Shown here: piece by piece, positions 5,246 through 64,000 of the stretch
Numbering within the stretch: the first letter of the stretch is position 1
How the letters are laid out: each line of letters begins with the position of its first letter
Assembly: GCA_040285745.1 (NCBI GenBank)
Contig: JAUFOR010000005.1
Location: 620,001-684,000 of the forward strand
Direction of reading: 5' to 3'
Length of the DNA: 64,000 nucleotides
Origin: Barthelona sp. PCE
Lineage: Eukaryota
The notes under the pieces: generated by a model
Database searches by the model: none
Told to the model about the DNA's origin: nothing
Seen by the model: only the letters and a program-made list of their open reading frames with translations
Translations under genes and position numbers: made by a program

Positions 5246-5312
5246 GTAAATGGTGTATTTCTGCATTTTCCTTTTTTTTACTTCTTTTTCAGCAGACAAT
5301 TTTGTTACTTTG

Positions 5313-12326: not shown

Positions 12327-12431
12327 AGTCTGCTCTTATCAAAAAAAGAGTGAAAAGGGTTGGATATGGTCATACAAATTTTTTCTTGTGTTTTTCACAG
12401 TTTTACTCTCTTCATATTTTTTACCTTTAAA

Positions 12432-22505: not shown

Positions 22506-22826
22506 ATGGTTCGTGTTACACTCCGCAGACGCACATCCTACAACACCAAGTCCCAAAAGACCCGCGTTGTTAAGACCCCTGGAGGTCGTTTGGTCACCCG
22601 TTATCTTAAGAAGAAGACTTCTGCTCCCAGATGTGGATTTTGCTCTTCTAAGCTTCAAGGTATCCCCAGAGTTCACCCCAAGGAGATGCACCGTCTTTCT
22701 AAGAACCAACGTACCGTTTCCCGTGCTTACGGTGGAAATCTTTGCCACAAGTGCGTCAGAGACCGTGTTCTTCGTGCCTTCCTTGCTGAGGAGCGTCAGG
22801 CCGTCAAGAAGTCCATGAAGGAATAG
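22506..22826 (+). CDS. RPL34: 60S ribosomal protein L34 (eL34)
   Basis: MVRVTLRRRTSYNTKSQKTRVVKTPGGRLV...CGFC...VSRAYGGNLCHKCVRDRVLRAFLAEE. Start is the ATG at 22506; intronless; AATAAA at 22849-22854. Confidence 0.97.
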   Translation: MVRVTLRRRTSYNTKSQKTRVVKTPGGRLVTRYLKKKTSAPRCGFCSSKLQGIPRVHPKEMHRLSKNQRTVSRAYGGNLCHKCVRDRVLRAFLAEERQAVKKSMKE

Positions 22827-35687: not shown

Positions 35688-35713
35688 TAAAATCAAATTA
35701 AATCAAATTTATT
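35686..35713. terminator. Putative bidirectional polyadenylation signals between the convergent 2132-aa gene and the NRPS
   Basis: AATAAA at 35686-35691 overlapping the plus-strand stop, and TTTATT (minus-strand AATAAA) at 35708-35713 just downstream of the NRPS stop. The spacer is only 34 bp. Confidence 0.55.
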
Positions 35714-35721
35714 TTGCTAGA

Positions 35722-38700
35722 TTAGTCACTCTTCATTGCTGCGACAGCGCTCGAGAACTGCTCAACGTTCTCTGGCATGAAGAGGCTATTGTGCAGACAG
35801 TCCATACGAACAACCTGCACTGTGTTTTCGTCAATATCGAAACCATTAGTGGGATGTTTGGCAGAGCGCACTGTAACGTAATCACTCTCAAGTACAATAT
35901 CACAGACGACCAGTAAAGTGGGGATATGGTACTGGATGGAGTCTGAGAAACCGGTGGAGCGTTCGTATAAGTGACACTTCATGTCGTTGAAATACATTTC
36001 GTTAGCCAAGTCGTGATACCATTTGTTTTCGATATCTTCAAAGTCCATGACTCCGTGGAGATGCGTGACGGACGCCTGCGAATCCTCCAGCGAAGGTACG
36101 TGGTCGAACTCGACAAGAGGGTGCACAGGATCGAAAAGAACGACAAACTCCAATGTTGAGGAGTTAACGTACTGTTTCGTGATTAGTTCGTGTACGGATA
36201 GGGCACCGTACGAGTAACCACCGATTGCGAAACGGCAGTTAGGGTTTGCTTGATATAGGGCGTTAAATACACCCGCCAGGAATTGCAGGTTGTCATCCAT
36301 CGTTTCAGGTTCGTTGGAGCCAAAGTTCGGGTTGCTAACAGCAATAACATTGAAAGGGGTACGCTCAAACAGCTGTAGATACTCAACAGCGGTACCGTTG
36401 CCCGAGTAGAACAAAACCATGTTGACACGGGTGTCTGAGATCAAAGAGTCGGAACTGGATGCATGTGAAGCAACCATGAACCCGGCCTGGTCATCGGATG
36501 TAAGCTTCAGATTGCTGGCTAGATATGACAGCACTGGTTTGTCCATGACTTCCTTGAATGAAAGAGTGATACCATGTTTTTTCAGCTCTGACACCAGTTT
36601 GATGATGAGCAGAGAGTGACCACCCAATGAGTAGAAGTCGCTGTCGTGGGATATAGCACTCAGGGGAATCGCAAGGAGTTCCGAGAAGCACTGGGCGACA
36701 ATGACTTCCTCAGTAGTGTGGATAACATTGCCTTCCAGATCGTTTTTGCTGACCTGGCGGGACAAAGACTCCGATTTCCTGTCTAATTTACCGTTGTGGG
36801 TGGTGGGAAGCTTTAGAACAGGCGTGAACGAACTCGGGATCATATACTTTGGAAGCTTTTGATCAAGGGTACGTTGAAGTGTAAGAATCTGTGTCGATGA
36901 AAGCTCATCAATCTCGATAAAGGCTGCGAGAACATCGTGCTCGTATATGACGATGGCGTTCGTTGAAAGACATTCTGTAATGATAGCCTCAATCTCGAGG
37001 AGCTCCACACGATATCCACGAATCTTGACCTGGTTGTCCAGACGTCCCACAAACAGAATGTTGCCGTCGGGTAGTCTCTCGACTGCATCACCAGTTCGGT
37101 AGAAGCGGTGTCCATTGATATTTATGAAGCGTTCTGCCGTTAGCTCAGGCTGACCTGCATAGCCAAGGGCAACACCAAGTCCGCCAATCAACAGCTCACC
37201 GGTGACGCCAACTGGCACAGGGCGCAAGTTGGGGTCAACAACTACACAGTGCATGTTGTTGAGAGGCTTACCAATCGGAAGCACATCAGTTGCAACGGAC
37301 ATGTCGTTGGTAAACGCGGTTGTGTCGACAGCTGCCTCGGTGACACCGTATGTGTTGTACAGTGTACCGTCAATAGCGCTGTCAAAAATCCTGAAGTCGC
37401 TCATTGACCAGCTGTCTGATCCACAAGCGATATTGCGAATTGAGAGCCTATCCTTGAGGCTCATCTCATCCACGAGACTGCGCAGGACGACGGGCACGAA
37501 TTCAGCGAATGTGAATTTGCTTGACATAATGATCTGAAGCAGACGTTGGGGGTGGAGCAATATGGAGCGGTCAACGAGATGAGCGTGCGTTCCAAAGAAG
37601 AGGAAGCGAATCATGTCACCAACGAATACATCAAAGCTGGGACTTGCCATTTGCAGTAGGCGCTCTTCGGTGCCAAAATCGAAGAGATCCTTCCAGGCAG
37701 CGGCAACATTAAGAACACTGCCGAAACCGATGCATACGCCCTTGGGCTTACCACTAGATCCGCTGGTGAAGACTGTATATGCTGGCTGACTTAATTGGGC
37801 ATCAGTCGCACTGATGTCGATTGCAGCATGTTCGTTGATGTCACCAATAGTAACAACAGGAACACTGAATTCTGTGCGAGCATCAGTAAGATCAACAACC
37901 ATTGTACACTGCCCGGTTGTAACCATGTGCTCAACACGGTCGCTGGGGAGTGACGCGTCAATGGGAACGAACGAGCGTGCACTAAGCCAACAAGCCAAAA
38001 CAACTGCGGGTGCATACACACTCTTGTGCATGAAAATACCAATCACGGTGTTTGTACTTTGGCTAAGTAGACTGAGAAGACGCTTGGTGAACAGCAAGAA
38101 GTCGCCCACAGTGATTGATGACATTGTGAGAACATCGTTTCTCATCTCAGAGACTGTAACGAGTGTTTCATTCTGAGAAAGTGAAACAAAGCGGTCAAGG
38201 ATTGCCTGCATTGCCTCTGAAACGGTTGGACCCGTCCAAATAGTATGCGGAATATCGATTTGACGCTTAATGAGATCACCACTTGTTGACTCAAGCAACA
38301 TGCGCTGAGCCACAATTGCAACCTCGCTCATGATATTGTTAAGCATGGCGCGCGACTGAGGGTCATCGTTGACACTGAAACGCAGCATAAACTGATTAGA
38401 CGTGCCGGCGCTGATTGCAAGAGGATACTCTGTGAGATCCATTGCAGCTAGCTGATCAATGTGGGTGTCGTCCTCGGAACTGTCCTCGGGCGTACCAGAG
38501 ATGATGCCGATACTATCAAACGCAATCATTGTTGTGAAAAGTTCACGGCGTCCGGCCAACAGCGATGACAACGAGAAGTTCGAGTGCTGTGCAGCGCCCA
38601 GAACCTCTGTGTTGAGGTTGATGAGCAGCTGGTCTATGGGAAGGTTCAACCACGAGTCGGGCATAAATATTGGCAGCGTGTTAAACAGAGGACCGACGAC

Positions 38701-41700
38701 GTTAACCAATGACTGGTTCTGTCTTCCACTCACAGTAAGGCCGAACACTGCTGGCTGGTCGGGAACCAGACGCTTGAGTGTTATCAGCCAAATTGCCATA
38801 ATAAGTGTGTTGGCAGTAACGTTGTGTTCATACGCCATCTTTCTCAGCTGATCGCTATTGTCCAGCGTGAGGATGGTGTCGTGCGACGATGTAGGGCGAG
38901 TCAGGTGCTTCAGGCGATGGTTGCCCAGCTCCTTAGGAAGGTGGGAGAGCCACCAGCCCAAGTTATCGGGTAGACCACGAGCAATGGTGCTGAAACGCTC
39001 ACTGACAGGTACGTCCTCGCCGTCTAGAATGGCCTCGAACATACTGACAATGAGTTCGACGGAAGACCCATCAACAATGGAGTGATGGTGGGTCCATACA
39101 ACGCACGTGGTGCTCTCAGTCTTGGCAAAAACTGTGAAGCGGGATGCAACCATCGTGTGATCGACGGTCCTGGAGAAGGAGTTACGGCACTGTGTGACAA
39201 TCTCCTCCACCTCATGACCATCGTTCGGAATAACGTAGATGACGTCCATTGGGGCGGAAGGCATGTTGATTAGTCCAATGATACCAGTATCCATGAACAA
39301 AAACTCTGTACGCAGTGCTGGGTTGGCGTCTATCAGCTTGGAAAGTGCCTTTTCGACGCAATCAACGTCATGGTTGATCTCGAAGACGCGACTCTCGAGG
39401 TAGTTCTGTGACTCGCGGTTGATAAACACGGGCAACAGAATACCTTGTTGGATGGCTGTGGGGGTGTATATGTCTTCAATGTGGGAAGTATCCTTGTGCT
39501 CGCGAACATATTCGAGCTCCTCCTGCTGAACACCGTAGTCGCGCTCAATGACAACATCGGTGGCCTGCGTGATGCGGCCAATGGTTGCGCTGAGTTCAGT
39601 CTCGAACTCAGCCATTTCATCAGCGAGGTCAGGTGAGTAGTCGATCACCAACTGATATGTGCCATTGCTGCGTGACATGTTGATGTTGATGAGGAAGGGG
39701 AAGTTGTTCTGCGGATGGAAGTCACTATCACCGTATCCGAGAACGTCGAAATCGGTGGTCTTTGTGTTATCCTCGCTCTGAGAGCCAATGTCACCAAGGT
39801 AGTTGACACAGAACTGCGGAAGCTTGCGCTTATGCAGCTTCTTACTCTGAATCAACGTACCGTAGGTGGATGGATTCTGTGACAACGAGCGGCGGAATGT
39901 GCGGATAAATTCGCTAATGTCTTCAGTCATGAACGCTGCAACTGGGAAAAAAGCTGTGAAGAAACCCACAGTGTCCAGTATGTGCGTGCATGTTTCACGA
40001 CCGTGCTGTTCGAGCGTGAGGCCGACATTACGTAAGCTAAACATACGTCCAAAGGTGTGTGCAATCACTGCGAACAGGATCTCGTGAGAGTTGTCAAGCG
40101 GTACTGCCAACGATGTTTTGAATGTAGCATTCATATATGAACCGAACGGCTTGGTTTGCAGCGGCAACATGTCGTAATCGATGCGCTGCCAAAGGTCAAT
40201 GTGTTGAGAAGCGTTCATATCCATAAGAGCAGCGTTTGCAGCAGCCATATCAGTCTGAACAACGGTTGAGGACTTGAGGTCGCCAAGAATACGGGACCAC
40301 GATACAAAATCAACAATGAAGTGATGGATCGCAAATAGGGCGGCATCCTCAAAGCGGAAAATGTGGAAGAGCGGGTCATGTAGTACATCCAGTTCTTCAC
40401 CGACCGCAATGAGTGCTGCTTCTGCCGCTTTAGAAGACTCCACGTGGTGGATCTTGAAGAGTGTTGATACATCGTCGGGTGTGATGCAAATTTTGTGAAG
40501 CTTCACGTCGAATCTACATCTGAAAGAAGTATGTGCGTCAACCATCCTCACCAGACGCGTGTTAAGCGCCTCATCTGTCAGGGTACACTGGACATACATG
40601 CTTTGGAAGAAGTGGCCGGGATACATAAAATTCTGATCAAAGATGAACTGAACTGCATGTGATACGGGCACATTGCTGCCATCATACGACAACAGTGATA
40701 CCTCTGCGGCCATGCTGAGCGCAACAACCTCCGCCAGGCCAATAACAGATGGGTGACCAAAGATATCCTTGAGAGTGAGTGTGAAGCCCAAATCTCGCAT
40801 CTTTGATATGAGTTGAATAGCGCTGATTGAGTCACCGCCCAACTTGAAGAAAGACACGTTGGGATCAAGCGTAGTGAGGTGTAACACGGAGCAGAACACA
40901 TCGTAAACGCTGCGCTGCTTGACAGTCAACCTACTCACGTCATAAACCTCCTCTTCCTGGTTCAGTTGTGTGTGCAACATATAGAACTTGAAGGAGCTAA
41001 TTTGCTTACGATTGGCCTTACCGCTGCTTGTGAGCGGAATTTCATCAAGGAAGACGTAGTCGGCAGGTCGCATATAACCTGGCAGGTTGTTACCTGCTTC
41101 AGCAGTCATTTTTGCGCACAGTTCGTGGTAATTACCTGCCTTCTGGAAGTAAGCAACGATGACAATGTCGCTTGGCTTCTTAACAGGGACTACGATAACG
41201 CTATCACCAATTACACCGGAAAGAACTTGCTCAATTTCACCGAGCTCGATACGGTTGCCGCGGATCTTGACCTGGTGGTCGATGCGGCCGAGGTACTCGA
41301 CGTTCCCGTCTGCGCGCCAGCGCACGAGGTCGCCCGTCTTGTACAGGCGGCCCGCGGCGAACGGGTTCGGCACGAAGCGCGCGCGCGTGAGGTCGGGAGC
41401 GTTGTAGTAGCCGCGAGCGAGCGCGATGCCACCGATGTGCAGCTCACCCGGAACGCCGATGGGGCACAGCTGCATCGCCTTGTTCAGCACGAGCAGCTGG
41501 TTGTTCGCAACTGGTATGCCGATCGGCGGGTTGCTGCGCATGCCAGGCGTGCACTCGTACCACGATGAGTCGATCGTTGTCTCGGTGGGGCCATACAGGT
41601 TGAGCAAGCGGCAGTCGTCGACCTTCTCGAAGAACTGGTCGCACATGACGAGCGGCAGCGCCTCACCGGACTGAACGACGATGCGGAGGCTGGGTAGCTT

Positions 41701-56700: not shown

Positions 56701-59700
56701 ACCGTAAATGTTCCACAATGAGACATGAGGGAACATACGCATGAAGCGACGGTCAGCAGTGATGGGCAGCGCCTCACCTTCGTTAAACACATACCTTAAA
56801 TGAGGGAATGTGTTACCGTCAGTGTAGTCGAGCCACACCGAAAGCAAAGAACCAACGAGACCGCAAATCGTGATACTATTATTTGCCAAGAACTTTGTGA
56901 TCTCAGTAACATCATTGTGCTTACCAGGTGGCATGAGCCACAACTGAGCACCGTGGACAGCAGTAGCAAAGACCTCCCAGACCGAAACATCGAAAGAGAA
57001 GGGGGACTTTTGCACGACACGATCAGATCCATCGTCCTTAAAGAACTGTGCCATCCACAGCAGACGGTTAACCGTTCCTCGGTGGATGATACAGATACCC
57101 TTCGGCTTTCCGGTTGAACCTGATGTGTACATTACGTATATCAAGCTGTTGGGACCTGTTAGATTAACGGGGTTCTCTGTTGGGTACTTTGCAAAATCAA
57201 CACTGTTATAATCGAGTAGCTGTCCATCAAACGTAAATGATGTGAAACGACTCAGAAGTGAAGTCTCTGAAATAATAACTGAGAGTCCGCTGTGCTCGAT
57301 ATAGTACTGGATACGGTCATCAGGATAAGTGGGATCAAGGGGTAGATACGCCGCTCCGGCCTTAATAATACCCCAAAGACAAATGATGAGCATTATAGAA
57401 CGATCGACAGCTAAGCCAATGATACTCTCCGGACCAGCACCTTGATCACGTAAGAAATGCGCAACCCTGTTTGCAGCGGCATTGAGCTCGCCGTATGTCA
57501 TACTTGTACCATCGTACGATACAACGGCAACACGGTCAGGATGCATGCTAACACGATCCTCAATGAGCTCGTGAACACATTTATGATCGGGTATGTACTT
57601 CCTACATCCGTTGAGACCGTGAAGGATGTGCTGTCTTTGCTGAGGGTGGATAATCTCAACATCAAGCACGGTTTGAGCTGTGTTGGAGAGCATATTGTCA
57701 AGTAAGAAGTGGAAGTTCTCTGACATACGTTCAATGGTACCCTTCTCAAAGAGTTCAGTCGAATACTCCCACTCAAAAGTGACAGTACGAGCGCTCCTAT
57801 CCTCATGGGCGATTAGAGAAAGATCAAACTTGGCGAGTGGTACTTCAGGCATAAAGTCTTCCACTGTACATCCATTAATATCAAACACCTCTTCATCACT
57901 GGAGACGAGATTGAACATTGTCTGGAACACAGGGTTAAGGTTAGCCTGACGGGCAACACTAAGATGATCCACTAGCTTCTCAAACGGAATATCTTGATGC
58001 TCATATGCGGAAATGCACTTCTTGTATACATACTTCACGAATGAATCAATGGATGCACTTTCGTCAAAGTCAAGAGCAATAACAATAGTGTTAACGAAGA
58101 AACCAACGAGGTTTTCCACGTCAGAACTATGTCTGTTAGCAATAGGTGTTCCGATATTGACATACTCTTGGTTTGTGTAACGGTGCAAAAGAATACCGAA
58201 AACTGAAAGAAGCAAGTGGTACACTGTACATCCAAGCGTTTTGGTCAACTCAATACATTTTTCATATACGGCTGTATCTACAGTTGTGTGGAACGTGTGT
58301 CCCGTATATGTGAGCTGAAGTGGACGTGGGTTGTCGAACGGAAGCTGTAAAGGAGTATCCTTGCCTCGCAGTTCTCCACGCCAAAAGGCAAGTTGACGGT
58401 CAAGCTCAGCACCTGTCAGGAATTCTCTTTGCCATACAGCGTAGTCAAAATACGTAACTGGCAACTGTGGAAGTGACGCCGTCTTGTGTGCAAGGGCAGC
58501 GTTGTACAATGATGATAGATCTCGAAGAAGAATGTCCATAGACCAACCATCTGAGCAGATGTGGTGCATACAGAGCGCAAGTACATGGCTCTTGCGACCA
58601 GTGTCTGTCAGTGGGATCAGAGCAACGCCAACCACAGGACCATTGACAATATCAAAGTCTTGTTGGAAATACTCTGAAACAATATCTCTTGCCTCGTCTG
58701 AAGTGCGTGCATCATATAAAGTGAGAGGGAATGCAGCTACACCACCCAGTACCTGAACGGGTTGACTGCCACGTGACTCTGTTCTGATACGCAGCACTTC
58801 GTGTCTCTCGTACAAAAGATCCAGCGCCTCACGCATAGCCTTGATATTGAGCTCGCCGTCAACACGGTATATAGATCCCATGTTGTAGAGAGCCGAAGTG
58901 TCAAGCAACTGACCCAGAATCCATGAACGAAGTTGTGCAAATGAAAGAGGCGCCTCAATTCGCTCCTTATGAGAGATGTTTCGAGTTGATTTGTGTTGCT
59001 TATTTGCAGCACCAACATATTCAGCCAGTGCTACGACGGAGGGTTTATCGAAGAATGAAGAAAGCGACACCTCAACAGAGAAGACCTTCCTAATACGTGC
59101 AACGACCTGTACGGCCAAGAGAGAGTGTCCTCCAAGCGAGAAGAATGACTCAACACACGAAAGCTTCTCCAATTTGAGTAGTTCGCAGAAAATATCATGA
59201 ATCTCTTCCTCTGTCTGGTTTGTAGGCTCAACAATGTCATTCTGAGACACGAATAAATTAGATGATGTTGGTTCGGGGAGACGCTTCCTGTCAATCTTAA
59301 TTGTTACTGTTTGTGGGAACTTCTCCATGACAGTAAGGTAAGTAGGAATCATGAACTTTGGAAGTGCCTTAATGCAGTGAGCGTATAAAGAAGGCAAGAA
59401 ATCCGAGTCTGGTTTCTTGAGTGTTACATAGAGAGCTAATCTCTTCTCGCCTGACTTGATAACAACTGTTGTGATTGCACCCGAAACATTGGGGTGTGTC
59501 ATAACAACGTTGTCAATTGCTGTGGGCTCGATACGGAAACCACGGATCTTGACCTGATGGTCGCGTCTGCCAACAAACTCAATAAAACCGTTCGGCAATC
59601 GACGGACAAAATCTCCTGAGTTATAGACACGGTCGGTGAATGTAGCGGTGGGTTTCCAATCTATGAAGGATTTCTCGGTGAGATCTGGTCTGTTGACATA

Positions 59701-62700
59701 ACCAACACCTGTATGAGCGCCACCAATCATCAGCACACCAACAACACCCTGTGCGACAGGTTCGTATGTTGATGGGTTGACAACATACAATGAGCAGTTA
59801 GGCATATGCTGACCGATGGGAACCGAACGATCTGTAACGGTATGCTTCGTAATATTGTACCAACTTGAATAAACTGTTGCCTCCGTAGGACCGTACACGT
59901 TCATCAGAACCCGTGGAGCGTTGTCTGATTCTAACACAGCACAAACAGTTGCCTTTGACATTGCCTCACCACCAGTGGAAAGCGTGTCAAATGCCTTGAG
60001 AGCTGCAGGGTGCATTTTGGCAACGGCGTTAAAAAGCGCTGTGGTCATAAAACCCCACTTAGGACGAACGCGAATCAAAATATTAGCGTATTTCTTGAGA
60101 TCAAGTACCATTACCTTCGGTACCAGGTGAACAGTACATCCGTTTGCGAGACCGACGTGGATCTCAATCATGTGAGCGTCAAACGCTAGAGTACTAGCGC
60201 ATACAATACTATCACCCTCACCCAGTGAAACCAGATCGTCCATCTCCATTAGTGCGAGAAGGTTACGGTGGCGGATGACACATCCCTTAGGGACTCCTGT
60301 TGTACCAGATGTGTAGATGATGTACATGATATCATTGTGTTGAGCAAGGTCAAGTTCAGTTGCAGGAGCGGGAGAATAATGCTCTGAATCAGAAACTAGT
60401 TTATCAAGAGTAATGATATCGTACTCGCCCGCAAGAGCCTCGCGGGTGTCATCACGCATCGTCTCTACAATAACAAGAGAGACACCTGCATCACCAGCAA
60501 TGAACTGGGCACGATCAACGGGTATGTCAACAGGAATGGGAACATAGACTGCGCCCAGTCGAATAATGGCATATATGACAGCAGGAGCCATCAAAACGCG
60601 GTCACTCGAGAGCAAAACATATGATCCCCGTGTGACACCGCACTCGTCCCTGAGGTACGTCGACATACGGTCAACAGTTGAAAACAGTTGTCTGTAACTG
60701 AGCGTCTCGTTCGTTTCACAATCAACTACAGCAACAGCGTCTGGCTCTGAGAACACCATTGATCTGGCATGCACGGTAGCATAATCCAAATACGAAGTTG
60801 ATGGTTCTCTGTTCTTCTTGTTGAACTGCATGATTTCTGTCTCAATAACTGCGGGTGTAGCGCTTGATAAGTTCTCGAACTTAATGTCAGCCAGATTCTT
60901 CTCAATGAATTGTCTGGTTATATGCTCGTACACTGATGATATTATCTCAATTGTATCTTTTGAGAACATATCAACGTCGTAATCGATGGAAAACTCAAAT
61001 GAGCCATCAGTTTCAAGAACAGTCACACTGAGATCAAACTTTGCAGCCTTCTGCTCAGTTTCCAGTTCGGAAACGGGGATTCCATCAAACTCTGGCAATT
61101 TCTGACGCATGTTCAACATGTTAAAGGTAATTTGGAAAATGGGATTGGCGTTTGCCAGTCTTGGCATCTGCAGCTTCTCAACGATTTGTTCAAAAGGAAC
61201 GTCTTGGTTATCAAACGCACTCAATAGAGTTTCCTTTACGGTTGCGATGAATGCGTCCATATGGACAACGTCCTTCGTAACTCTGACAGGAAGAGTGTTA
61301 ATGAAGAATCCAATCAAGTCTTCAATTTCGGTTATGCGACGACCAGCGACAGGACATCCAATCACAACTTCATCACCGTCAGAGAAGTGGAGCAGCGTTG
61401 CTGAAAAAGCTGAAAAGAGAGCCATATATGTAGTGACACCCTTGTTGTGACAAAGAGACTTGACACCTTCAACAATGTCTGAACCAAATTCAAACGAGTG
61501 GGAGGCACCTACAAATCGGGACTTATCAGGGCGAGGGTGATCACTGAATACGGTGTGCAATGCAGATGATCCCTCCAGGTGCTTGAGCCAGAACTGAAGT
61601 TGGCTTTCAACAACGGAGCGGGATAGCGTAACGCGTTGATTAACAGAAAAATCAGTGTACTGGAATACAGGCTCTCTTACCTTACCGCCCGCGTAACGAA
61701 CCGCCAGTTCATCAAAGAAAAGGCCAACTGACCAACCATCACTGATGATATGGTGCATATTGACAACGATAGCAGTTTTTCCATCGTCGCAGTGTGCCAC
61801 CTTACAGTAGAACATGGGTCTATGGAATGAAAAGTTGTGTTCTGATGCTTCTTGAGCCCACTTTTGGGCGATAATCTTCGATTCAAGAGTTGACGTCTCA
61901 TAGACAAAACAATCTGAATCTACATCAACGATTTTCTGCGCTACAACACCCATGTCATCGACAAATACAGTTCTCAGTGAGTGCTGGTCGTGAGCAATGT
62001 CGTAAATTGCGTTTCTGATGCGGTCGATGTCCAGCATATCATCAACAATAAACTCGACGTGCATATTATACAGAGAAGATGCATCGATTAACTTACAGAC
62101 GAGCCACAGACGCTGCTGTGCGAATGAGAGCTCGTAAGAAGCCTTGTTGTGCTTCTCGAACGATGAAACTGAAGCACGATTCATTACAGAAGTCAGCGAA
62201 CTGATGGACTGACTGAGAGTCTCCGGTGTCGGGTTGACAAAAATGTGACTCACCTTGATCTTTTGATTGAGCTCCTGTGAAAGGCGGGCAATTACCTGTG
62301 TGGCCACAAGCGAGTGACCACCCAGATCGAAGAAACTATCGCGTATACCGACAGTGTCAACACCTAGTACCTCCTCAAAGACGCGACAGATAAGCTTCTC
62401 GATCTCTGTCGTTGGTTCAACATAATTCGACACAGAAACAGTCTGAGCAACAGAAGGCTTTGGCAAGGTCTTGCGGTTAACTTTACCTGATGTTGTCTTG
62501 TTAAAGTGTGATACAACAATATAGCGAGCAGGAACCATGGTGAGTGGCAGCTTCGTAAGCATAAACTGACGTATGTTCTGAACGTACTCGGTGTTATGCA
62601 GAACAACCAACTCATCTGATTCGGTCAAGTGAGAATACTCATGCTCGCGGGGAACAACATACGCACACAGATAGTTATCTCCCGACTTATCCTTAACAAC

Positions 62701-64000
62701 AGTGATTAAACCAGTTGATACTTCAGGATGAAGAAGTAAAGCACTGGCTATCTCACCAAGCTCCATACGAAGACCATGAATCTTGACCATGAAGTCAGTT
62801 CGGCCCTTATAGTGGATGAGACCCTCGTTGTCATATCGACCAAGATCGCCTGACATATACACATACTCATTTCGTTCTTCAGTGAGTGCAAATGTTCCGA
62901 AACTTTTCTTAGTAAGATCAGGACGCTTCCAGTATCCGCTTGCAACGGCGGCACCACCGGTGTATATCTCACCGACAGCACCCTTTGGTGCGAGGTAGCC
63001 GTTCTGTACAATCCAGCAAGTGTAGTTATCAAAGCAATATCCGCATGGAACATAGGTCTCTCCCGGTTTTGTTTCGTAATATGTGGTCTCAAGACAGCAC
63101 TCCGTTGCACCGTATGTATTTACCAGCTTCGCGTTGGGGAACTTCTCGTAGAACAGGTCACGCACGTATGTAGTCAACGGTTCTCCACTGAGGAACACGT
63201 AACGCAGACCCTGGTACTTCTCCGCATCAATGGCATCAAGGAAGGCCTTAAGCATACTGGGCACAAAGTAACAAAGAGTGACATTGTGCTGTTCAAACTC
63301 TTCAAATATCTCAACCGGTTCACGGTGAGCATTGGGTTGTGTCATATGGAGAACAGCGCCACACAAGAGTGGCACGATATACTCCCATACACTCGGGTCA
63401 AACGTCAACGTTGTCTTTAGAGCAATGACGTCCGCAGCGGAAGCTTTTGTGTACTCCAACTGCCAAATCATACGGTTCATAACGGCATCGTTTGTTGTTG
63501 GGATACCTTTTGGCGTACCAGTCGAACCTGAAGTGAACACAATGTAACAGCGATCGTCGAACGAAACTGTCCAATCGAAGCTCACCTTCTGATCTAAATA
63601 ATCGCTTGTGGACACTAAATCCACGTCCAACACGTGGCAACCGGACTCGCCAATGATGTCGGGTAAACGATCCCTCAAGATATCGTCGTCCACAATCAGC
63701 ACCGACATGTCAACATCTTTAACTAAGAAATTGATACGGTCGGTTGGGAAAGACGGCTCCATGGGAACATAGAGAGCACCTAGCTTGAAACATGCCAGAA
63801 TAGCAAACATCATCTCTGGTCTACGCAGAATGCAAATACCCACTGCATCACCCTTTGTCACATTGTGCTCTAAAAGGTATGCACACATTGCGTCTGTCTC
63901 GGCAAACAGCTCGCGGTACGACCATGAACTTTCTCCGAACGTCAGTGCGCAATCATCGAGATGCTGGTTACCATAAGAGAAAATGTGCTCGAATATTGTT
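35722..64000 (-). CDS. Giant multimodular non-ribosomal peptide synthetase, 5'-truncated by the window (at least 8 modules, 3 epimerases, terminal thioesterase)
   Basis: The frame stays open from 63888 to 64000 (TIFEHIFSYGNQHLDDCALTFGESSWSYRELFAETDA), so the start is outside the window. Eight A3 motifs TSG(S/T)(T/S)GxPKG near 63520, 60300, 57115, 53915, 49530, 45100, 42000 and 37755. Eight carrier-protein Ser codons at 62311, 59122, 55912, 52753, 48337, 43957, 40828 and 36613. Seven C-domain (H)HxxxD motifs, three E domains (HHxxxDxVSW, ExHGR, VG(W/F)FT), TE GYSYG (Ser codon 36211). Confidence 0.98.
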   Translation of the reverse strand, partial: TIFEHIFSYGNQHLDDCALTFGESSWSYRELFAETDAMCAYLLEHNVTKGDAVGICILRRPEMMFAILACFKLGALYVPMEPSFPTDRINFLVKDVDMSVLIVDDDILRDRLPDIIGESGCHVLDVDLVSTSDYLDQKVSFDWTVSFDDRCYIVFTSGSTGTPKGIPTTNDAVMNRMIWQLEYTKASAADVIALKTTLTFDPSVWEYIVPLLCGAVLHMTQPNAHREPVEIFEEFEQHNVTLCYFVPSMLKAFLDAIDAEKYQGLRYVFLSGEPLTTYVRDLFYEKFPNAKLVNTYGATECCLETTYYETKPGETYVPCGYCFDNYTCWIVQNGYLAPKGAVGEIYTGGAAVASGYWKRPDLTKKSFGTFALTEERNEYVYMSGDLGRYDNEGLIHYKGRTDFMVKIHGLRMELGEIASALLLHPEVSTGLITVVKDKSGDNYLCAYVVPREHEYSHLTESDELVVLHNTEYVQNIRQFMLTKLPLTMVPARYIVVSHFNKTTSGKVNRKTLPKPSVAQTVSVSNYVEPTTEIEKLICRVFEEVLGVDTVGIRDSFFDLGGHSLVATQVIARLSQELNQKIKVSHIFVNPTPETLSQSISSLTSVMNRASVSSFEKHNKASYELSFAQQRLWLVCKLIDASSLYNMHVEFIVDDMLDIDRIRNAIYDIAHDQHSLRTVFVDDMGVVAQKIVDVDSDCFVYETSTLESKIIAQKWAQEASEHNFSFHRPMFYCKVAHCDDGKTAIVVNMHHIISDGWSVGLFFDELAVRYAGGKVREPVFQYTDFSVNQRVTLSRSVVESQLQFWLKHLEGSSALHTVFSDHPRPDKSRFVGASHSFEFGSDIVEGVKSLCHNKGVTTYMALFSAFSATLLHFSDGDEVVIGCPVAGRRITEIEDLIGFFINTLPVRVTKDVVHMDAFIATVKETLLSAFDNQDVPFEQIVEKLQMPRLANANPIFQITFNMLNMRQKLPEFDGIPVSELETEQKAAKFDLSVTVLETDGSFEFSIDYDVDMFSKDTIEIISSVYEHITRQFIEKNLADIKFENLSSATPAVIETEIMQFNKKNREPSTSYLDYATVHARSMVFSEPDAVAVVDCETNETLSYRQLFSTVDRMSTYLRDECGVTRGSYVLLSSDRVLMAPAVIYAIIRLGAVYVPIPVDIPVDRAQFIAGDAGVSLVIVETMRDDTREALAGEYDIITLDKLVSDSEHYSPAPATELDLAQHNDIMYIIYTSGTTGVPKGCVIRHRNLLALMEMDDLVSLGEGDSIVCASTLAFDAHMIEIHVGLANGCTVHLVPKVMVLDLKKYANILIRVRPKWGFMTTALFNAVAKMHPAALKAFDTLSTGGEAMSKATVCAVLESDNAPRVLMNVYGPTEATVYSSWYNITKHTVTDRSVPIGQHMPNCSLYVVNPSTYEPVAQGVVGVLMIGGAHTGVGYVNRPDLTEKSFIDWKPTATFTDRVYNSGDFVRRLPNGFIEFVGRRDHQVKIRGFRIEPTAIDNVVMTHPNVSGAITTVVIKSGEKRLALYVTLKKPDSDFLPSLYAHCIKALPKFMIPTYLTVMEKFPQTVTIKIDRKRLPEPTSSNLFVSQNDIVEPTNQTEEEIHDIFCELLKLEKLSCVESFFSLGGHSLLAVQVVARIRKVFSVEVSLSSFFDKPSVVALAEYVGAANKQHKSTRNISHKERIEAPLSFAQLRSWILGQLLDTSALYNMGSIYRVDGELNIKAMREALDLLYERHEVLRIRTESRGSQPVQVLGGVAAFPLTLYDARTSDEARDIVSEYFQQDFDIVNGPVVGVALIPLTDTGRKSHVLALCMHHICSDGWSMDILLRDLSSLYNAALAHKTASLPQLPVTYFDYAVWQREFLTGAELDRQLAFWRGELRGKDTPLQLPFDNPRPLQLTYTGHTFHTTVDTAVYEKCIELTKTLGCTVYHLLLSVFGILLHRYTNQEYVNIGTPIANRHSSDVENLVGFFVNTIVIALDFDESASIDSFVKYVYKKCISAYEHQDIPFEKLVDHLSVARQANLNPVFQTMFNLVSSDEEVFDINGCTVEDFMPEVPLAKFDLSLIAHEDRSARTVTFEWEYSTELFEKGTIERMSENFHFLLDNMLSNTAQTVLDVEIIHPQQRQHILHGLNGCRKYIPDHKCVHELIEDRVSMHPDRVAVVSYDGTSMTYGELNAAANRVAHFLRDQGAGPESIIGLAVDRSIMLIICLWGIIKAGAAYLPLDPTYPDDRIQYYIEHSGLSVIISETSLLSRFTSFTFDGQLLDYNSVDFAKYPTENPVNLTGPNSLIYVMYTSGSTGKPKGICIIHRGTVNRLLWMAQFFKDDGSDRVVQKSPFSFDVSVWEVFATAVHGAQLWLMPPGKHNDVTEITKFLANNSITICGLVGSLLSVWLDYTDGNTFPHLRYVFNEGEALPITADRRFMRMFPHVSLWNIYGPTETSIDTAVYECTLDLDYAAPPIGQAMHNCTVYALDKLNRIVPLGVAGELHIGGIGVGRGYYLRPDLTDDKFVHDPFAEELGLPERFGSRMYRTGDLGRFRFDSQLEFIGRLDFQVKIRGHRIELGEIENVLSGLDFTESCVVVARKDDGDLKLVGYIVPSDGIIDGDVAIARKKLARDVCSEELPKYCVPSAIVLLDRIPRTPNDKVDRKALPAPSMQVSSMEIVAPKSALEAQMVDTWKELLSLPSVSTVDNFFDVGGHSLLATQLASRIKSIFNIQIPLHQLFGSLTIVSLCKMISERLAQEQTVSFKPLKKTVNLDMSVDYVEVPLSFAQQRLYFIDQLEGSSAMYNVPILFNINGSINIEALRCALNGLVTRHRILVTTYHEDINGAIVQRIPTGEVFAPFNYLMTTDDIIEKANDEVMTVFDLETGPVFRVTLIQRMGKDEHMLLLNAHHICTDGWSMSLMTKELQTMYNAAVRSETPELPVIEAQYCDFALWQKDYLKSVMDKQVAFWRERLSGVQDLSLVLPYDRSRPETLMYDGKFYNFEIPNVVAGLESVTKTQGCTMFMLVLTVYQLLLYRYSCSDSVVVGVSIANRHFEAIESLIGLFVNSLPIRADFDSSMTVLDVLHATRLNLLEAYDNQDVPFEKLLDELDVPRRLNQNPIFQTMFDFMIIDDAELDFVSLDVDSSDFSFDKAKFDLALVGKADSDTDSLWIQFEYCTELFDESTIVRLCDSFEAIIRSVIDSVATPIIQLPLGRSETELLETIEGEHDSVKHDKLFHELVLDTCRTHPDVTAFVYKEETYTYAEFEIAISKVACAIASTDPGTFVGVAVERGVAAPIGAFGVLAGGRAYCPIDIKLPQNRVDHMLKLGGIRVVVCSRSQVGRFKECKCLVVEDILASSPVELPTLSHVTHDSPAYVIFTSGSTGLPKGVSISHNAVVNAALAWKTAYELEPHMRHLQMASFSFDVCTGDFCRALTTGGTMYILDRDVLLMPDQLAAYIIENSINVAEFVPAVMRVLYEYCHETDTRLPSFKLLACGSDFWSEREFVTFNWLIPNGVMINSYGLTEATIDTTFFKGVIENPTSSGVPIGVPFANQSVLILNQNMQRCPVGVQGEIFIGGSGVALEYVNQPDLTAKRFVTVDGHRVYRTGDGGRWRSDGNCVLSGRMDNQVKIRGYRVELGEIEAVLMNEPEVDTAVVLLNNDSLIAYLTVTPDMELYVRDLNNSVTKKLPHYMIPTGYVCVLEFPLTHNGKVDRKALVASENVPVLVNSDFVAPKTDVQRALHGVWARVLQVGETAFGITDNFFRIGGDSILCIQIVSGCRRQGITISVRDIFKYPTIEQLADHARLEVKTEKKIFTGEIVMSNIMKQYLSRTHDNINHYNLGVVLNVDGYSTEKIKAAFEKVILSQPLLRSVFVDSKCFALPMSPSTVDHIDLNAGCDISTEVTRLGEQMHQKIAIDKCNVCATHLTTPGASLLLIVAHHLVIDGVSWRIVADSLKYHLEDPAAPIDYDSAFNEYMAVVNEEIGERTAQYTDCSYADARREEFELDESISKRIVDVANETDRINVEEILLGALTLALVDMKHSTAMNIESHGRFDRLTSAADVSNTVGWFTHQFTLDPQESSVISVDQPLDALRAIKDMRRNAGDGIYVKDQPAVVSFNYLGQFNSSVSNTGLCDMCDYSLGAYVDDRNFMEFAIDFNASLSDGILSASLASSDSYSNQFVSDLITKFKLYVSLLVTSIDIVHFYTPSDFDGLVTSEFIASNMHLVSKLESVSALSTMQMGMYFASLTAQDSDLSDYYVEQPLFKLDVNTPESLVHQAFDLLVERHPILRSYLARTTDFSVNMITIKPEEANVVWIHEEMRAYSDDDVQNIVEADAIRGFDLFNAPPVRVYWLASPECVVLLFSHHHILLDAWGTAVLFDDFLHILNTLKSEQVVAPIKTASASYLEYVKYIKALDSSAAKTFFKDMLADYSMPSALRFGHVFGFGEGYGYKKIEMSREVGIALEAMARSYQVTIATLIQVIFASVLSVYQSTETLSLGTTVSGRAIDLNVDDTVGLFINTLPILFDLRRTRTLEEVCTSVQALMVEINAHSHVSLSEIQKWVNMPGKQLFDTLIVVENINSIEGSEDIEVPYNMRSFEVEEGTGKTDYPLTIAVYPENNSVQFGFRKELLSRAFIDQFVEHCESVVNRVVENPSLTIAEMLETPESQHRRYVEQFNANVCEYPANGVDAVFGKIAADHKNLIAVIDSATKERVTYEELHARSNAMAHSLRAHGLKCNDVVAFAVDRSLSLIVLMLAIVKAGGVYLPIIDSYPMDRVEFMLEDTQAVFAIATSNKFGLFPETCTVHDLSVIQSDAENHSDRCIHCLSKMTADDPVCIFYTSGSTGKPKGVLLPHRGIVRLTQNTNWTTIETHDVFAQCSTVAFDAATLEIWTTLLNGATLVIIPKQVVLDPSLFDETLSRYNVTHVFLTTAIFNRHCIDESVTHFSKLKYIMFGGEKADSSAIRSCMLNFAPQHVVNLYGPSETTTLATFHEITEVPNVYDVIPIGRPVMNSTCYIMRQGTTELCPIGVPGELVTGGDGVALRYINAPELTANKFIPDTLKPLRNNTLYRTGDIALMRPDGIIEFVGRVDDQVKIRGFRIELGEIERALVAHGSVSNAFVTVRKTKLSQQRILAYLVPVITIYEEEAESVLSDIRDFISNLLPNYMLPSALCFVTEFPLTSNGKVDIKALPDMSSLETSVTPNFRPPVTQMEMRMADVWSAVLQKPSIGLFDNFFTLGGDSILAIQLVAGLKREGFNVKVNDVFSHPTIDSLLRICETLPTSDTVAISQARIVGNVQLLPAQRWFFAREFLNTNHFNQAFVLTVPHDCTYEDYKKCLITVFNAHDAFRALFSNEIVPRQRFMNELKIDFELADAVSPKDLQDFFNEKGTELQSSLNITSGPIIRTCFCGSHAILAIHHLIIDLVSWRILLDDLNDVFAHRHEVEHELPLKTHSVADYVDALTAFVESVGHKFVHYYESIPPFRLPSKHPDLLTVGTEAEVVSIQLSSEKTQQLLDVDVKLETLLLTSLYMALRKYCDSNSVIIGLESHGREEFLGIDLSRTVGWFTSIYPVHFKVGDISDLRIICAIIGAQKRASPMNGLPYLPLSFFSNDIEFESPSILFNYMGVMGNSGAKSETSSFGFSDYTAGLDVSLDNQMLADLLCNAVVMNGRLSVDFAFSEVKLDVNVMQRVLDDMQECLFSLCDVFAVSEPHKTPDLDLTILSTNQQYNLLSKINESVEAVLPLIPIQQRMLFHSNISDSRDYVIQSVYEISHVIDHEVFRKAVAHIMSLSEVLRCRFIDINGVGHMVVTPADAVTVPVHYVDDVFASKPSAMDRVASSLSFDICFSDEHLLFTFHHIVLDGHSLSLLMSCLLEAYEAIAAGETPSSDVVSYRTLAKHVYSYVHAINEKAAADFWKKQIANAQSSILEQWLTPQELTSIVPSHDSVYFTVDSTLTERLKTTCSHIGVTMNSLVLSVWSIVLSSILRQNDITVGIVSSGRNAFNDAERVLSIMINTVPFIVSVSSGTLETLAETVHKLMGQISEYSMYDVDTAAQSSSSELYNSLYVFENFASFDADADSSKLSFAPVDVHEVSEYPLSCIVQPRADDMVIELSYKNTFYTKSQIDAMGTMINAVLTHFAKNAAMHIFDIDLFSLSHTLAPEPSFNEEPELDIASSVIKYAAEHPQKPMLLFPNSTVSYMDVAIIALEVASQISNSVSFDFKHIAVVSERGLAQIVGIIVAGLLQKPYLPLHPKIGAERIHYMVEDSNAPVIITDGSFTDMYEHTFIPSIEMLSYSNAVLDVGSLPAFDDRHLYTIYTSGTSGKPKGVQVSSSCMLNLVHNKCIAVEEDSIVSLSVNPSFDPAAMEVFSTMFHKGVFAVFTDKHLVESTALRALVQRTGLKYWFSVTAVIAHLASENAACFHGIKRIMVGGEALKQSAVRDVFSKTYDGVLVNAYGPTENTVVSTARVYSRDDVDADITIGTPFTGVDYDITDHNQRFIPKVLPGELLLHGHQIAIGYLNREALTASQFPVINDCKCYRSGDLVCMVDSGEIKFMGRIDDQVKIRGYRIELDEISVVLSKGLNVDVEVLVHDLGKDTAALVAFIQSVNGDITPSKVNMVLKASMLPEYMHPQHNVFVKSMPLTLNGKIDRKKLMQQFTLKTDAVVSPRTLAEQLVVKGVASVLRRPEEEISVNANFFQLGGQSLLLARLKAVLSEHATLSLSDLFSAKSLSDIALLLNSSDSVTVFPVRVAKRDVYPITRGQQRMLFVCDLVGDTKQYHTYFTRRFTPCIDLDQLLVAFEKTINHFEPLRSVFTRDNKGMRVLSTAKYSVYKATSLDDLYAFSCHKSFVLDQSLVRLGYFVNDDGTISFVMTIFHGVVDGVSIEIIEKCLEFFYLNPKKSSIDLVSSSVTFKDYAVFQREVLEDTTSPSLDKWVELLKESEPVDMSTLPRPVELDYHSSTVQVVIGQDIDGGLNVLPRLRTLAKQHQISMFQLLLSLFGAFIQRCSSVEKLIVGVPSAGRDFVQIQDTVGYFVETIPVAFVHDAESDINAYIDQAGIALALARSAAVPIEAIIETVVEDRELNRNPLFQVFFAHEFNEQTSLITNEWDDLIVDDLSDSFMPDATKFDLSVTAVESEKEIVFVAEYMTSLFEPQSIQEIMNAFVLFIHVVGNNPTTCIDRVPMVEYDVLEPMTFVSAPEHDLGRDGITVSHLMLDVIRSQPEKIALTDHIGQSLTYIELFNRAMGIAKAVDIQKGEVIGVCFERSLDLMASLWAIVLSGAAYLPLDPSYPVDRLSYFVQHSKTMKVLCNTESANIASNFEAEIVDVSAINPIVIDPEQYITSASVNDIMYIIYTSGSTGTPKGVAIEHRSAVNRLLWMRDLTYTADDRFIQKTPYSFDVSVWELFVPFVLGAELHLLKPGAQNNPWEIADFVNERRVTIMHFVASMLGAFLDVLSVKLPSLRIVVQSGEALPLVMCDQFFEKVDDCRLLNLYGPTETTIDSSWYECTPGMRSNPPIGIPVANNQLLVLNKAMQLCPIGVPGELHIGGIALARGYYNAPDLTRARFVPNPFAAGRLYKTGDLVRWRADGNVEYLGRIDHQVKIRGNRIELGEIEQVLSGVIGDSVIVVPVKKPSDIVIVAYFQKAGNYHELCAKMTAEAGNNLPGYMRPADYVFLDEIPLTSSGKANRKQISSFKFYMLHTQLNQEEEVYDVSRLTVKQRSVYDVFCSVLHLTTLDPNVSFFKLGGDSISAIQLISKMRDLGFTLTLKDIFGHPSVIGLAEVVALSMAAEVSLLSYDGSNVPVSHAVQFIFDQNFMYPGHFFQSMYVQCTLTDEALNTRLVRMVDAHTSFRCRFDVKLHKICITPDDVSTLFKIHHVESSKAAEAALIAVGEELDVLHDPLFHIFRFEDAALFAIHHFIVDFVSWSRILGDLKSSTVVQTDMAAANAALMDMNASQHIDLWQRIDYDMLPLQTKPFGSYMNATFKTSLAVPLDNSHEILFAVIAHTFGRMFSLRNVGLTLEQHGRETCTHILDTVGFFTAFFPVAAFMTEDISEFIRTFRRSLSQNPSTYGTLIQSKKLHKRKLPQFCVNYLGDIGSQSEDNTKTTDFDVLGYGDSDFHPQNNFPFLININMSRSNGTYQLVIDYSPDLADEMAEFETELSATIGRITQATDVVIERDYGVQQEELEYVREHKDTSHIEDIYTPTAIQQGILLPVFINRESQNYLESRVFEINHDVDCVEKALSKLIDANPALRTEFLFMDTGIIGLINMPSAPMDVIYVIPNDGHEVEEIVTQCRNSFSRTVDHTMVASRFTVFAKTESTTCVVWTHHHSIVDGSSVELIVSMFEAILDGEDVPVSERFSTIARGLPDNLGWWLSHLPKELGNHRLKHLTRPTSSHDTILTLDNSDQLRKMAYEHNVTANTLIMAIWLITLKRLVPDQPAVFGLTVSGRQNQSLVNVVGPLFNTLPIFMPDSWLNLPIDQLLINLNTEVLGAAQHSNFSLSSLLAGRRELFTTMIAFDSIGIISGTPEDSSEDDTHIDQLAAMDLTEYPLAISAGTSNQFMLRFSVNDDPQSRAMLNNIMSEVAIVAQRMLLESTSGDLIKRQIDIPHTIWTGPTVSEAMQAILDRFVSLSQNETLVTVSEMRNDVLTMSSITVGDFLLFTKRLLSLLSQSTNTVIGIFMHKSVYAPAVVLACWLSARSFVPIDASLPSDRVEHMVTTGQCTMVVDLTDARTEFSVPVVTIGDINEHAAIDISATDAQLSQPAYTVFTSGSSGKPKGVCIGFGSVLNVAAAWKDLFDFGTEERLLQMASPSFDVFVGDMIRFLFFGTHAHLVDRSILLHPQRLLQIIMSSKFTFAEFVPVVLRSLVDEMSLKDRLSIRNIACGSDSWSMSDFRIFDSAIDGTLYNTYGVTEAAVDTTAFTNDMSVATDVLPIGKPLNNMHCVVVDPNLRPVPVGVTGELLIGGLGVALGYAGQPELTAERFININGHRFYRTGDAVERLPDGNILFVGRLDNQVKIRGYRVELLEIEAIITECLSTNAIVIYEHDVLAAFIEIDELSSTQILTLQRTLDQKLPKYMIPSSFTPVLKLPTTHNGKLDRKSESLSRQVSKNDLEGNVIHTTEEVIVAQCFSELLAIPLSAISHDSDFYSLGGHSLLIIKLVSELKKHGITLSFKEVMDKPVLSYLASNLKLTSDDQAGFMVASHASSSDSLISDTRVNMVLFYSGNGTAVEYLQLFERTPFNVIAVSNPNFGSNEPETMDDNLQFLAGVFNALYQANPNCRFAIGGYSYGALSVHELITKQYVNSSTLEFVVLFDPVHPLVEFDHVPSLEDSQASVTHLHGVMDFEDIENKWYHDLANEMYFNDMKCHLYERSTGFSDSIQYHIPTLLVVCDIVLESDYVTVRSAKHPTNGFDIDENTVQVVRMDCLHNSLFMPENVEQFSSAVAAMKSD

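Follow-up and report, generated by a model that had tools for sequence, protein, structure and literature searches.

A 64,000-nucleotide stretch of genomic DNA (contig JAUFOR010000005.1, positions 620,001 to 684,000 of the forward strand; hereafter the window) carries, beside eukaryotic housekeeping genes, the 3′ part of a giant gene for a nonribosomal peptide synthetase (NRPS). Judged from its sequence, this NRPS is a genuine, intact, colinear, linear (type A) multimodular synthetase of bacterial architectural type, and it is a new, large, and very divergent case of a bacterial-type NRPS resident in a eukaryote. We consider it likely that the gene encodes a real, native, and functional synthetase and is part of the nuclear DNA of a eukaryote whose genome is compact and poor in introns; with somewhat less assurance, we suggest that it arrived by an old transfer from bacteria, which appears to be the most likely history because its architecture is bacterial, as are all its nearest relatives.

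A Single Reading Frame of at Least Eight Modules

The NRPS open reading frame (ORF) occupies window positions 35722-63999 on the minus strand and comprises 9,425 codons followed by a TAA stop at 35722-35724. It is 5′-open at the window end, with no stop before it; the 28,278 bases visible are therefore only part of the gene. The longest other ORF across the same interval encodes 215 aa; we infer that a frame of 9,425 codons at ~47% G+C cannot have stayed open by chance. The frame is uninterrupted, its domains are regularly spaced, and it has no spliceosomal intron, as the first-pass annotation had proposed in describing one intronless ORF of more than 28 kb. The lack of introns says little about domestication, since the host genes here are also without recognizable introns.

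Core-motif positions place the adenylation (A), thiolation carrier (T), condensation (C), epimerization (E), and thioesterase (TE) domains in the order A-T-C-A-T-C-A-T-C-A-T-E-C-A-T-E-C-A-T-C-A-T-E-C-A-T-TE, giving a visible content of eight modules with eight A, eight T, seven C, and three E domains and one divergent terminal TE. The domain bounds used below are fixed windows around the core motifs and are approximate. Pfam, run on the protein in two halves, finds 8 AMP-binding, 8 PP-binding, and 9 Condensation stretches, and when the C-type segments are scanned singly, 10 of 10 exceed the Pfam Condensation cutoff (53.9-330 bits vs. 30.6). This order is the one originally called from the letters, and it is borne out by Pfam, the motif positions, the C/E tree, and NCBIfam. 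Successive A3 motifs lie 1035-1074 residues apart in the stretches without an E domain and 1414-1476 residues apart in those with one, and spacing as regular as this could not accommodate an overlooked methyltransferase or any other tailoring domain.

The catalytic residues are preserved throughout. All eight A domains contain the A3, A7, and A8 motifs as well as Asp235 and Lys517, so that every specificity code begins with D and ends with K; the A5 motif is matched by a regular expression in seven of the eight, and in the fifth A domain it reads NLYGPSE. The phosphopantetheine-bearing serine is kept in every carrier within the motif GG(H/D/Q)S, namely in T1 (62200-62409; LGGHSL, Ser562), T2 (59011-59220; Ser1625), T3 (55801-56010; Ser2695), T4 (52642-52851; IGGDSI, Ser3748, a carrier of the kind found before E domains), T5 (48226-48435; LGGDSI, Ser5220), T6 (43846-44055; LGGQSL, Ser6680), T7 (40717-40926; LGGDSI, Ser7723), and T8 (36502-36711; LGGHSL, Ser9128), all of which, like the other NRPS domains, lie on the minus strand. 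The second (catalytic) His of HHxxxD is likewise kept in 10 of 10 C/E domains. Because these residues persist despite the low identity between paralogous domains within the protein (23-42% for A, 12-36% for C/E, and 21-43% for T domains), purifying selection on function is indicated.

Codon Usage, Composition, and 3′-End Signals

To characterize the relation of the NRPS gene to its surroundings, we compared codon usage and tetranucleotide composition with those of the neighboring genes and of 11 bacterial NRPS ORFs, each 1,000 codons or longer, which served as controls (L001-L011; G+C at third codon positions, GC3, 0.32-0.92, with five at 0.44-0.53; L012 was excluded as too short). The GC3 of the NRPS gene is 0.51, against 0.33-0.55 for its neighbors. 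Its relative synonymous codon usage (RSCU) correlates with that of the pooled host genes at r = 0.93 for the five GC-richer genes and 0.81 for all eight, whereas the control ORFs give r between -0.32 and 0.46 with the pooled host. In pairwise comparisons the NRPS gene correlates with SSRP1 at 0.86, the highest value of all pairs in the window, with ORF 15230-19756 at 0.85, and with the USP7-like gene at 0.82; the host-host maximum is 0.77. The host genes seem to fall into two codon-usage classes, with the NRPS gene in the GC-richer one. Tetranucleotide z-scores agree: the NRPS halves correlate with the two main host segments at 0.52-0.59, compared with 0.57 between the host segments and 0.60 between the NRPS halves. 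The domesticated character claimed for the gene at the outset is upheld in its composition by the codon usage, the tetranucleotides, and the 11 bacterial controls.

Two compositional features stand apart. The AT-rich segment 27001-35700 (G+C 0.31-0.37, GC3 0.33) has tetranucleotide correlations of 0.22-0.44 with everything else, and in codon usage it resembles the kinase ORF at 8478-12326 (r = 0.74) rather than the remaining genes. Within the NRPS gene itself, GC3 climbs from 0.44-0.48 over the first 5,000 codons to 0.52-0.62 over the last 4,400, and similarity to bacterial domains drops in parallel, from 39% at C2/C3 to ~24% at C7/E3.

The 3′ ends provide a third signal. An AATAAA hexamer follows the stop codon within 22 nt in 6 of 11 genes, including the NRPS gene (+8), SSRP1 (+4), and eL34 (+22); the scan covered the first 80 nt after each stop, and the AT-richness of these regions makes this weak evidence. 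Downstream of the NRPS gene is a 34-bp AT-rich spacer (35688-35721) between its 3′ end and the convergent 3′ end of ORF 29289-35687 (plus strand), with AATAAA on both strands, that of the NRPS strand being the one 8 nt after the stop. The same arrangement, a spacer of 26-34 bp with the hexamer on both strands, is seen at both convergent pairs, 15203/15230 and 35687/35722, whose 3′ ends must therefore nearly touch or overlap. Because codon usage, tetranucleotides, and AATAAA placement are all host-like, a bacterial contaminant or chimera is unlikely.

Relatives of the Synthetase

A 1,501-residue stretch of the NRPS searched against 5.8 billion proteins returned 494 matches in the 5,183-16,494 aa size class and 2,471 in the 2,628-5,000 aa class. 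Among the best 120 listed per size class, identities were 26-37% and all organism-named matches were bacterial. With the final 1,200 residues as query, an exhaustive HMMER search of 1.84 billion cluster representatives yielded 169,380 matches, the best 150 of them at 26-33% identity; six of the top 10 were named, and these, all bacterial, represent four phyla (Tenacibaculum, Flavobacteriaceae bacterium, Lentzea, Nocardia, Haliangium, and Paenibacillus). None stands out as the donor lineage. For the two searched stretches together, nothing exceeds 37% identity among the matches listed from ~15 billion proteins, and the NRPS's own product was not among the matches returned by these large protein searches.

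At the level of single domains, the best identities to 384 bacterial NRPSs are 31-44% for A, 26-39% for LCL, 24-29% for DCL, and 24-31% for E domains. PDB matches are led by LgrA (704 bits) and other bacterial NRPSs; the sole fungal entry in the top 60, psoA, scores 260 bits, where bacterial entries of equal coverage score 301-431 bits. Scans of 185,579 prokaryote species (one genome each), JGI metagenomes, and viral contigs, which detect close relatives only, found none for the NRPS, and the literature, with supplements unopened, yielded no described orthologue or matching architecture. As far as these very large collections reach, the product would thus be undescribed, as had been suspected.

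Condensation and Epimerization Subtypes

The C and E domains were assigned to subtypes with a tree of the 10 window domains and 60 bacterial ones (12 E, 9 DCL, and 39 LCL), in which the references were labeled by context alone; the tree is the quick version of the search, not the completed careful one. E1 (51343-52677; HHLVIDG), E2 (46909-48243; HHLIIDL), and E3 (39424-40758; HHFIVDF) group with the 12 bacterial E domains at a support of 99 in the Shimodaira-Hasegawa-like approximate likelihood ratio test (SH-aLRT). E3, with 53.9 Pfam bits, is the most divergent domain of the protein. The E domains show the motifs ExHGR and NY(L/M)G, by which domains of this kind are known, with ESHGR and FNYLG in E1. 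C4 (50062-51396; HHILLDA), C5 (45595-46929; HHIVLDG), and C7 (38185-39519; HHSIVDG) group with the nine DCL domains (support 95), so that in modules 4, 5, and 7 the E domain is followed each time by a C domain of DCL type. The remaining C domains, C1 (60853-62187; HHIISDG), C2 (57664-58998; HHICSDG), C3 (54433-55767; HHICTDG), and C6 (42544-43878; FHGVVDG), group with LCL domains.

NCBIfam alignments are in accord with these groupings. E1-E3 all align to one E region (~2767-3235) of PRK05691, and also, below threshold, to TIGR01720, while C4 and C7 match the C domain found in PRK05691 directly after this E region. Taken together, the E and DCL/LCL placements of the window domains are supported but not beyond doubt. 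Among the references, three domains of a Tenacibaculum NRPS (P0243; at 1216, 2292, and 5439) stand directly after a carrier, are labeled LCL by context, and cluster with DCL domains; they may be dual E/C domains.

Terminal Thioesterase

The terminal domain (35725-36504) is an alpha/beta hydrolase, which we accept, on its alignments, as a divergent type I TE, real but weak. The region examined was the last 260-292 residues. It matches a profile built from 65 nonredundant bacterial NRPS C-terminal tails over positions 18-260 of 269 (25.6 bits, with an E-value valid for a single target), and the profile alignment places GYSYG at the nucleophile elbow (Ser), LFDPV at the Asp, and CLHNS at the His. 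In a protein atlas, the neighbors of the TE tail are all PF00975 clusters, the first match standing at 0.96 with 205 of 256 features in common. NCBIfam gave no family for the tail. The TE called from the sequence by the first-pass annotation is in this way retained on the profile and the atlas match, its Pfam score being below the cutoff.

Substrate Codes and Predicted Peptide

To examine substrate specificity, we read ten pocket columns from the eight A domains aligned with the six of TycC (P0028), and repeated the reading by hmmalign on 1,936 A-domain segments. The TycC codes recovered are DLTKIGEVGK, DAWQFGLIDK, DALTTGEVVK, DAFWIGGTFK, DVGEIGSIDK, and DGAYTGEVVK, which we take to be, in module order, those of Asn, Gln, Tyr, Val, Orn, and Leu; the pocket columns are taken as valid because the six codes agree with this series.

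Three of the window codes can be read against bacterial ones. The code of A4 (52861-54375), DVGEAGSIDK, is ornithine-like: it matches that of a Haliangium ochraceum NRPS domain at 10 of 10 positions, and at 9 of 10 DVGEIGSIDK of TycC module 5, which is given as an ornithine code in PMC3992020. A8 (36703-38217; DVGEAGTVDK) agrees with ornithine-type codes at 8 of 10 positions. The code of A7 (40945-42459), DVWHVSLIDK, is serine-like, identical at 10 of 10 positions to those of bacterial NRPS domains and at 9 of 10 to DVWHLSLIDK, which is given as a serine code in PMC10634486. A5 (48478-49992; DALFMGLTLK) matches unlabeled bacterial codes at 8 of 10; its nearest whole domain is LgrC A2 (code DAFWLGGTFK; 41-43% identity), and we guess that its substrate is hydrophobic. 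The other codes, of A1 (62470-63999; DPWYFSTLEK, with the N-terminal edge at or beyond the window end), A2 (59248-60762; DAIFSGVVYK, a hydrophobic-looking pocket), A3 (56062-57576; DVWGFEIIDK), and A6 (44050-45564; DPMFMGAVVK), reach at best 7 of 10 with any bacterial code, and A6, with a best bacterial identity of 31%, is the most divergent A domain. The claim that the A domains are readable by the Stachelhaus code was therefore right in part: it holds for the two domains at 10 of 10 and extends to the two at 8 of 10, and it fails for the four at 7 of 10. No paper containing DVGEAGSIDK, DVGEAGTVDK, DALFMGLTLK, or DVWHVSLIDK was found in the literature, supplements again unopened.

In a FastTree of the 8 window A domains and 44 bacterial ones, A4 and A8 are sisters (99) within the ornithine-type clade, to which the TycC ornithine domain also belongs. 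A3 pairs with A7 (94) in a group of TycC Asn/Gln-like and serine-code domains, and A2, A5, and A6 group with LgrC-like hydrophobic domains. The supported branches force at least three separate positions, that is, bacterial subfamilies, on the window A domains; the line would therefore have been multimodular already before its divergence, rather than the result of duplication of a single module. We propose that an already multimodular bacterial gene moved long ago and then underwent long and fast divergence inside the eukaryote.

In the mechanism that we envisage, the NRPS would be primed by a phosphopantetheinyl transferase encoded elsewhere and would assemble a peptide of at least eight residues, with an unassigned residue X1, a hydrophobic-like residue 2, X3, a D-Orn-like residue 4, a D-hydrophobic-like residue 5, X6, D-Ser 7, and an Orn-like residue 8. 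The D configuration at residues 4, 5, and 7 is predicted because modules 4, 5, and 7 carry E domains. The TE would free the peptide via hydrolysis or macrocyclization.

Tentatively, as a possibility short of a probability, we suggest that a fast-evolving, compact-genome microbial eukaryote has long kept an assembly line of at least eight modules, its domains at most 44% identical to those of the 384 bacterial NRPSs and its catalytic residues intact, and makes from it a cationic, D-amino-acid-rich peptide (two Orn-like residues and D-Ser) used against bacteria, prey, or hosts. If this is true, the peptide would be the first nonribosomal one from its lineage and the synthetase would represent a eukaryote-evolved branch of NRPS diversity. 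Should several more modules lie in the 5′ part, the gene would rank with the largest non-fungal NRPSs encoded in one ORF. Only a small number of eukaryotes have bacterial-type NRPSs, and each case has a bearing on how large biosynthetic genes pass between the domains of life and become capable of expression. The present gene is fully codon-adapted, extremely divergent, and unusually large for a single intronless ORF; it samples sequence space beyond that of bacterial and fungal genome mining, and it lends itself to a clean test of how long such a line keeps working while its own paralogous domains drift to 12-43% identity.

Alternative Explanations

Several points weigh against a native, functional synthetase of bacterial descent. 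The native status of the gene is judged from composition and 3′-end signals, and its 3′ flank alone is visible, which leaves room for a join at the unseen 5′ side. The trees held bacterial references only, so that the case for bacterial origin is one of best hits and subtype clustering; the branches of the window C/E domains are 1.1-3.7 long against a median of 0.36, which, with the quick tree, makes their placements less sure. Two C domains depart from the HHxxxDG motif, C6 by replacement of its first His and C4 by a terminal G-to-A change, and five of the eight specificity codes are without an assigned substrate. The TE scores 18.7 bits on PF00975, below the 26.4 cutoff and similar to its scores on other alpha/beta-hydrolase families; phmmer found no match for it at E ≤ 1e-3 among the 384 bacterial NRPSs, and its single-sequence AlphaFold model is unusable, with a predicted local distance difference test score (pLDDT) of 38.9. 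Finally, Pfam recognized no phosphopantetheinyl transferase, MbtH-like protein, transporter, or tailoring gene in the adjoining 35 kb.

A fungal or fungus-like host that is itself divergent, with the NRPS inherited vertically from old eukaryotic stock, is in our view unlikely. Its attraction lies in the neighbors and in the TE: the best structures for eL34 are those of Neurospora and Chaetomium (127 and 125 bits), SSRP1 is without an HMG (high mobility group) box, like fungal Pob3, with ascomycete Pob3 as its nearest atlas clusters (0.95), and the TE tail has ascomycete thioesterases as its three leading atlas clusters; moreover, the extreme divergence of the domains weakens best-hit logic. 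However, Drosophila eL34 equals the fungal scores at 125 bits, and eL34, SSRP1, and a kinase gave no lineage placement of the host, for which the protist of the first-pass annotation is a candidate only. Long fungal NRPSs have sizes within the 2,628-5,000 and 5,183-16,494 aa classes, yet no fungal protein is among the named best matches in either, and psoA scores below the bacterial PDB entries of equal coverage. Separate E and DCL pairs and a terminal TE are a bacterial NRPS pattern, and A4, A7, and A8 read with bacterial codes. If the host were a fungus, interest would drop to that of another early-transfer fungal NRPS. The bacterial architecture and relatives would also be expected of an assembly chimera or contaminant, in which a bacterial NRPS contig was misjoined to a eukaryotic one, and the single visible flank allows for it; in addition, the exact SSRP1 sequence is present in a large protein atlas, which may point to an environmental assembly, a kind in which chimeras are more frequent. 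Such a join is quite improbable, since codon usage is host-like to a degree (0.93) that none of the 11 bacterial NRPS genes approaches (at most 0.46), the tetranucleotide signature resembles that of the host segments as closely as these resemble each other, AATAAA after the stop is common to the NRPS and host genes, the convergent spacer is a clean AT-rich one of 34 bp, the scans of prokaryote species genomes and JGI metagenomes found no close relative, and every domain is at most 44% identical to those of the 384 bacterial NRPSs.

That the native gene is a decaying or silent relic, present with its product no longer made, would accord with the very long branches, the weak TE and E3, the variant His motif of C6, and the absence of recognized accessory genes nearby. 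We regard this as highly improbable for a frame that runs through 9,425 codons without a stop and keeps 8 carrier serines, 8 Asp235/Lys517 pairs, 10 C/E histidines, and the TE triad. Assignment of the whole contig to a giant virus or other large mobile element was rejected and is barely credible. Dense coding, convergent genes 26-66 bp apart, and the 6 of 11 ORFs without a Pfam family are features that such an element might show, and giant viruses often encode kinases and a ubiquitin protease; on the other hand, the window encodes eL34, with strongly biased expression-type codons and 820 bp of intergenic DNA around it, and a four-domain SSRP1 (four Pfam families), and the viral contigs, in scans that detect close relatives only, gave no match for SSRP1 or the NRPS.

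Comparison with Known Systems

Bacterial-type NRPSs are also known in eukaryotes from Basidiobolus and from the fungal penicillin ACV synthetase. The closest described precedent of the window NRPS is the pair MpcA and MpbA of Mortierella alpina, the malpicyclin and malpibaldin synthetases. They are, as the window gene probably is, bacterial-like multimodular NRPSs of a eukaryotic nuclear genome that incorporate D-amino acids, and they share with it a type I TE and codes readable by bacterial rules; their G+C and codon usage resemble those of host housekeeping genes, as does the codon usage here, and the authors view them as an early transfer (bioRxiv 10.1101/2020.08.21.262279). Compared by description, the two systems differ in that MpcA and MpbA are five-module enzymes of 5,532 and 5,541 aa that begin with a truncated C domain, use dual E/C domains, and are each encoded with nine introns, whereas the window gene has at least eight modules (at least 9,425 aa), separate E and then DCL domains, and no intron.

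Among bacteria, the Brevibacillus tyrocidine and linear gramicidin synthetases (TycC, P0028; LgrC, P0004; and LgrA) follow the same linear A-T-C logic, with E plus DCL domains for D-residues. C2 and C3 are nearest to a Brevibacillus dissolubilis NRPS (P0005) and then to two further Brevibacillus proteins (P0030 and P0006), as A5 is to LgrC. The window gene nevertheless shares only 24-43% identity per domain with these synthetases and differs from them in module order and substrates and in its eukaryotic context and codon usage.

Other eukaryotes offer partial parallels. Bdelloid rotifers keep NRPS and polyketide synthase (PKS) genes of non-eukaryotic origin, as would be the case here, in an animal host (PMC11258130). 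CpFAS1 of Cryptosporidium parvum is likewise a giant intronless ORF in a compact-genome eukaryote, a 25-kb bacterial-PKS-like megasynthase (PMC2995488), but is a fatty-acid/polyketide enzyme and not an NRPS. Candidate NRPSs in algal genomes have multimodular C-A-T organization resembling bacterial reference NRPSs; in that survey, eight matches are without a TE and LCL-enriched, and 12 of 12 long candidates are NRPS-PKS hybrids (PMC10794256), unlike the window gene, which is purely an NRPS and has both E/DCL pairs and a TE.

Neighboring Genes

The window contains 11 sizeable ORFs on both strands. Pfam recognizes UCH (2.7e-48) and USP7_ICP0_bdg, two Pkinase matches, SSRP1/POB3 (four families), and Ribosomal_L34e (5.7e-40), in agreement with the eukaryotic neighbors eL34, SSRP1, and a ubiquitin-specific protease named at first reading. 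The last of these is the USP7-like ORF at 710-5245, one kinase ORF lies at 8478-12326, and eL34 is an intronless gene at 22506-22826 with its ATG at 22506. On the 3′ side of the NRPS gene, the convergent ORF 29289-35687 is succeeded by a kinase, eL34, and SSRP1. The eL34 protein scores lower against the structures from Plasmodium, Toxoplasma, Giardia, Trichomonas, microsporidia, and kinetoplastids than against those named above. The host is a divergent eukaryote, and the scores against Plasmodium and Toxoplasma give no sign that it is an apicomplexan. In a word-indexed search of the 5.8 billion proteins, SSRP1 finds itself alone. Neither Rfam nor a tRNA scan gave any match in the window.

No Pfam family is found for 6 of the 11 ORFs scanned; those without a match at E ≤ 0.001, which encode 316-2,132 aa, include ORFs 5250-8411, 12360-15203, 15230-19756, 27650-28600, and 29289-35687. 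Together with the SSRP1 that matches only itself, these ORFs point to what may be a fast-evolving or poorly sampled lineage.

A probable spliceosomal intron had been assigned to the ubiquitin-specific protease gene by the first-pass annotation, and this could not be confirmed: the ATG-started frame needs none, and its stop (5243-5245) lies in frame ahead of the GT, so that splicing there would not lengthen the protein. The sequence right after that stop is intron-like in appearance, with GTAAAT, then a run of pyrimidines, then CAG; ORF 5250-8411, which opens here, may belong to the same gene or to another.

The AT-rich ORF 29289-35687, which converges on the NRPS gene, encodes 2,132 aa with a C-terminal part that looks, by eye, like a multipass membrane region. 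It contains a direct repeat (33082-33381 and 33604-33903) with a 522-nt period, at least 300 nt long and 98% identical, which duplicates ~174 residues.

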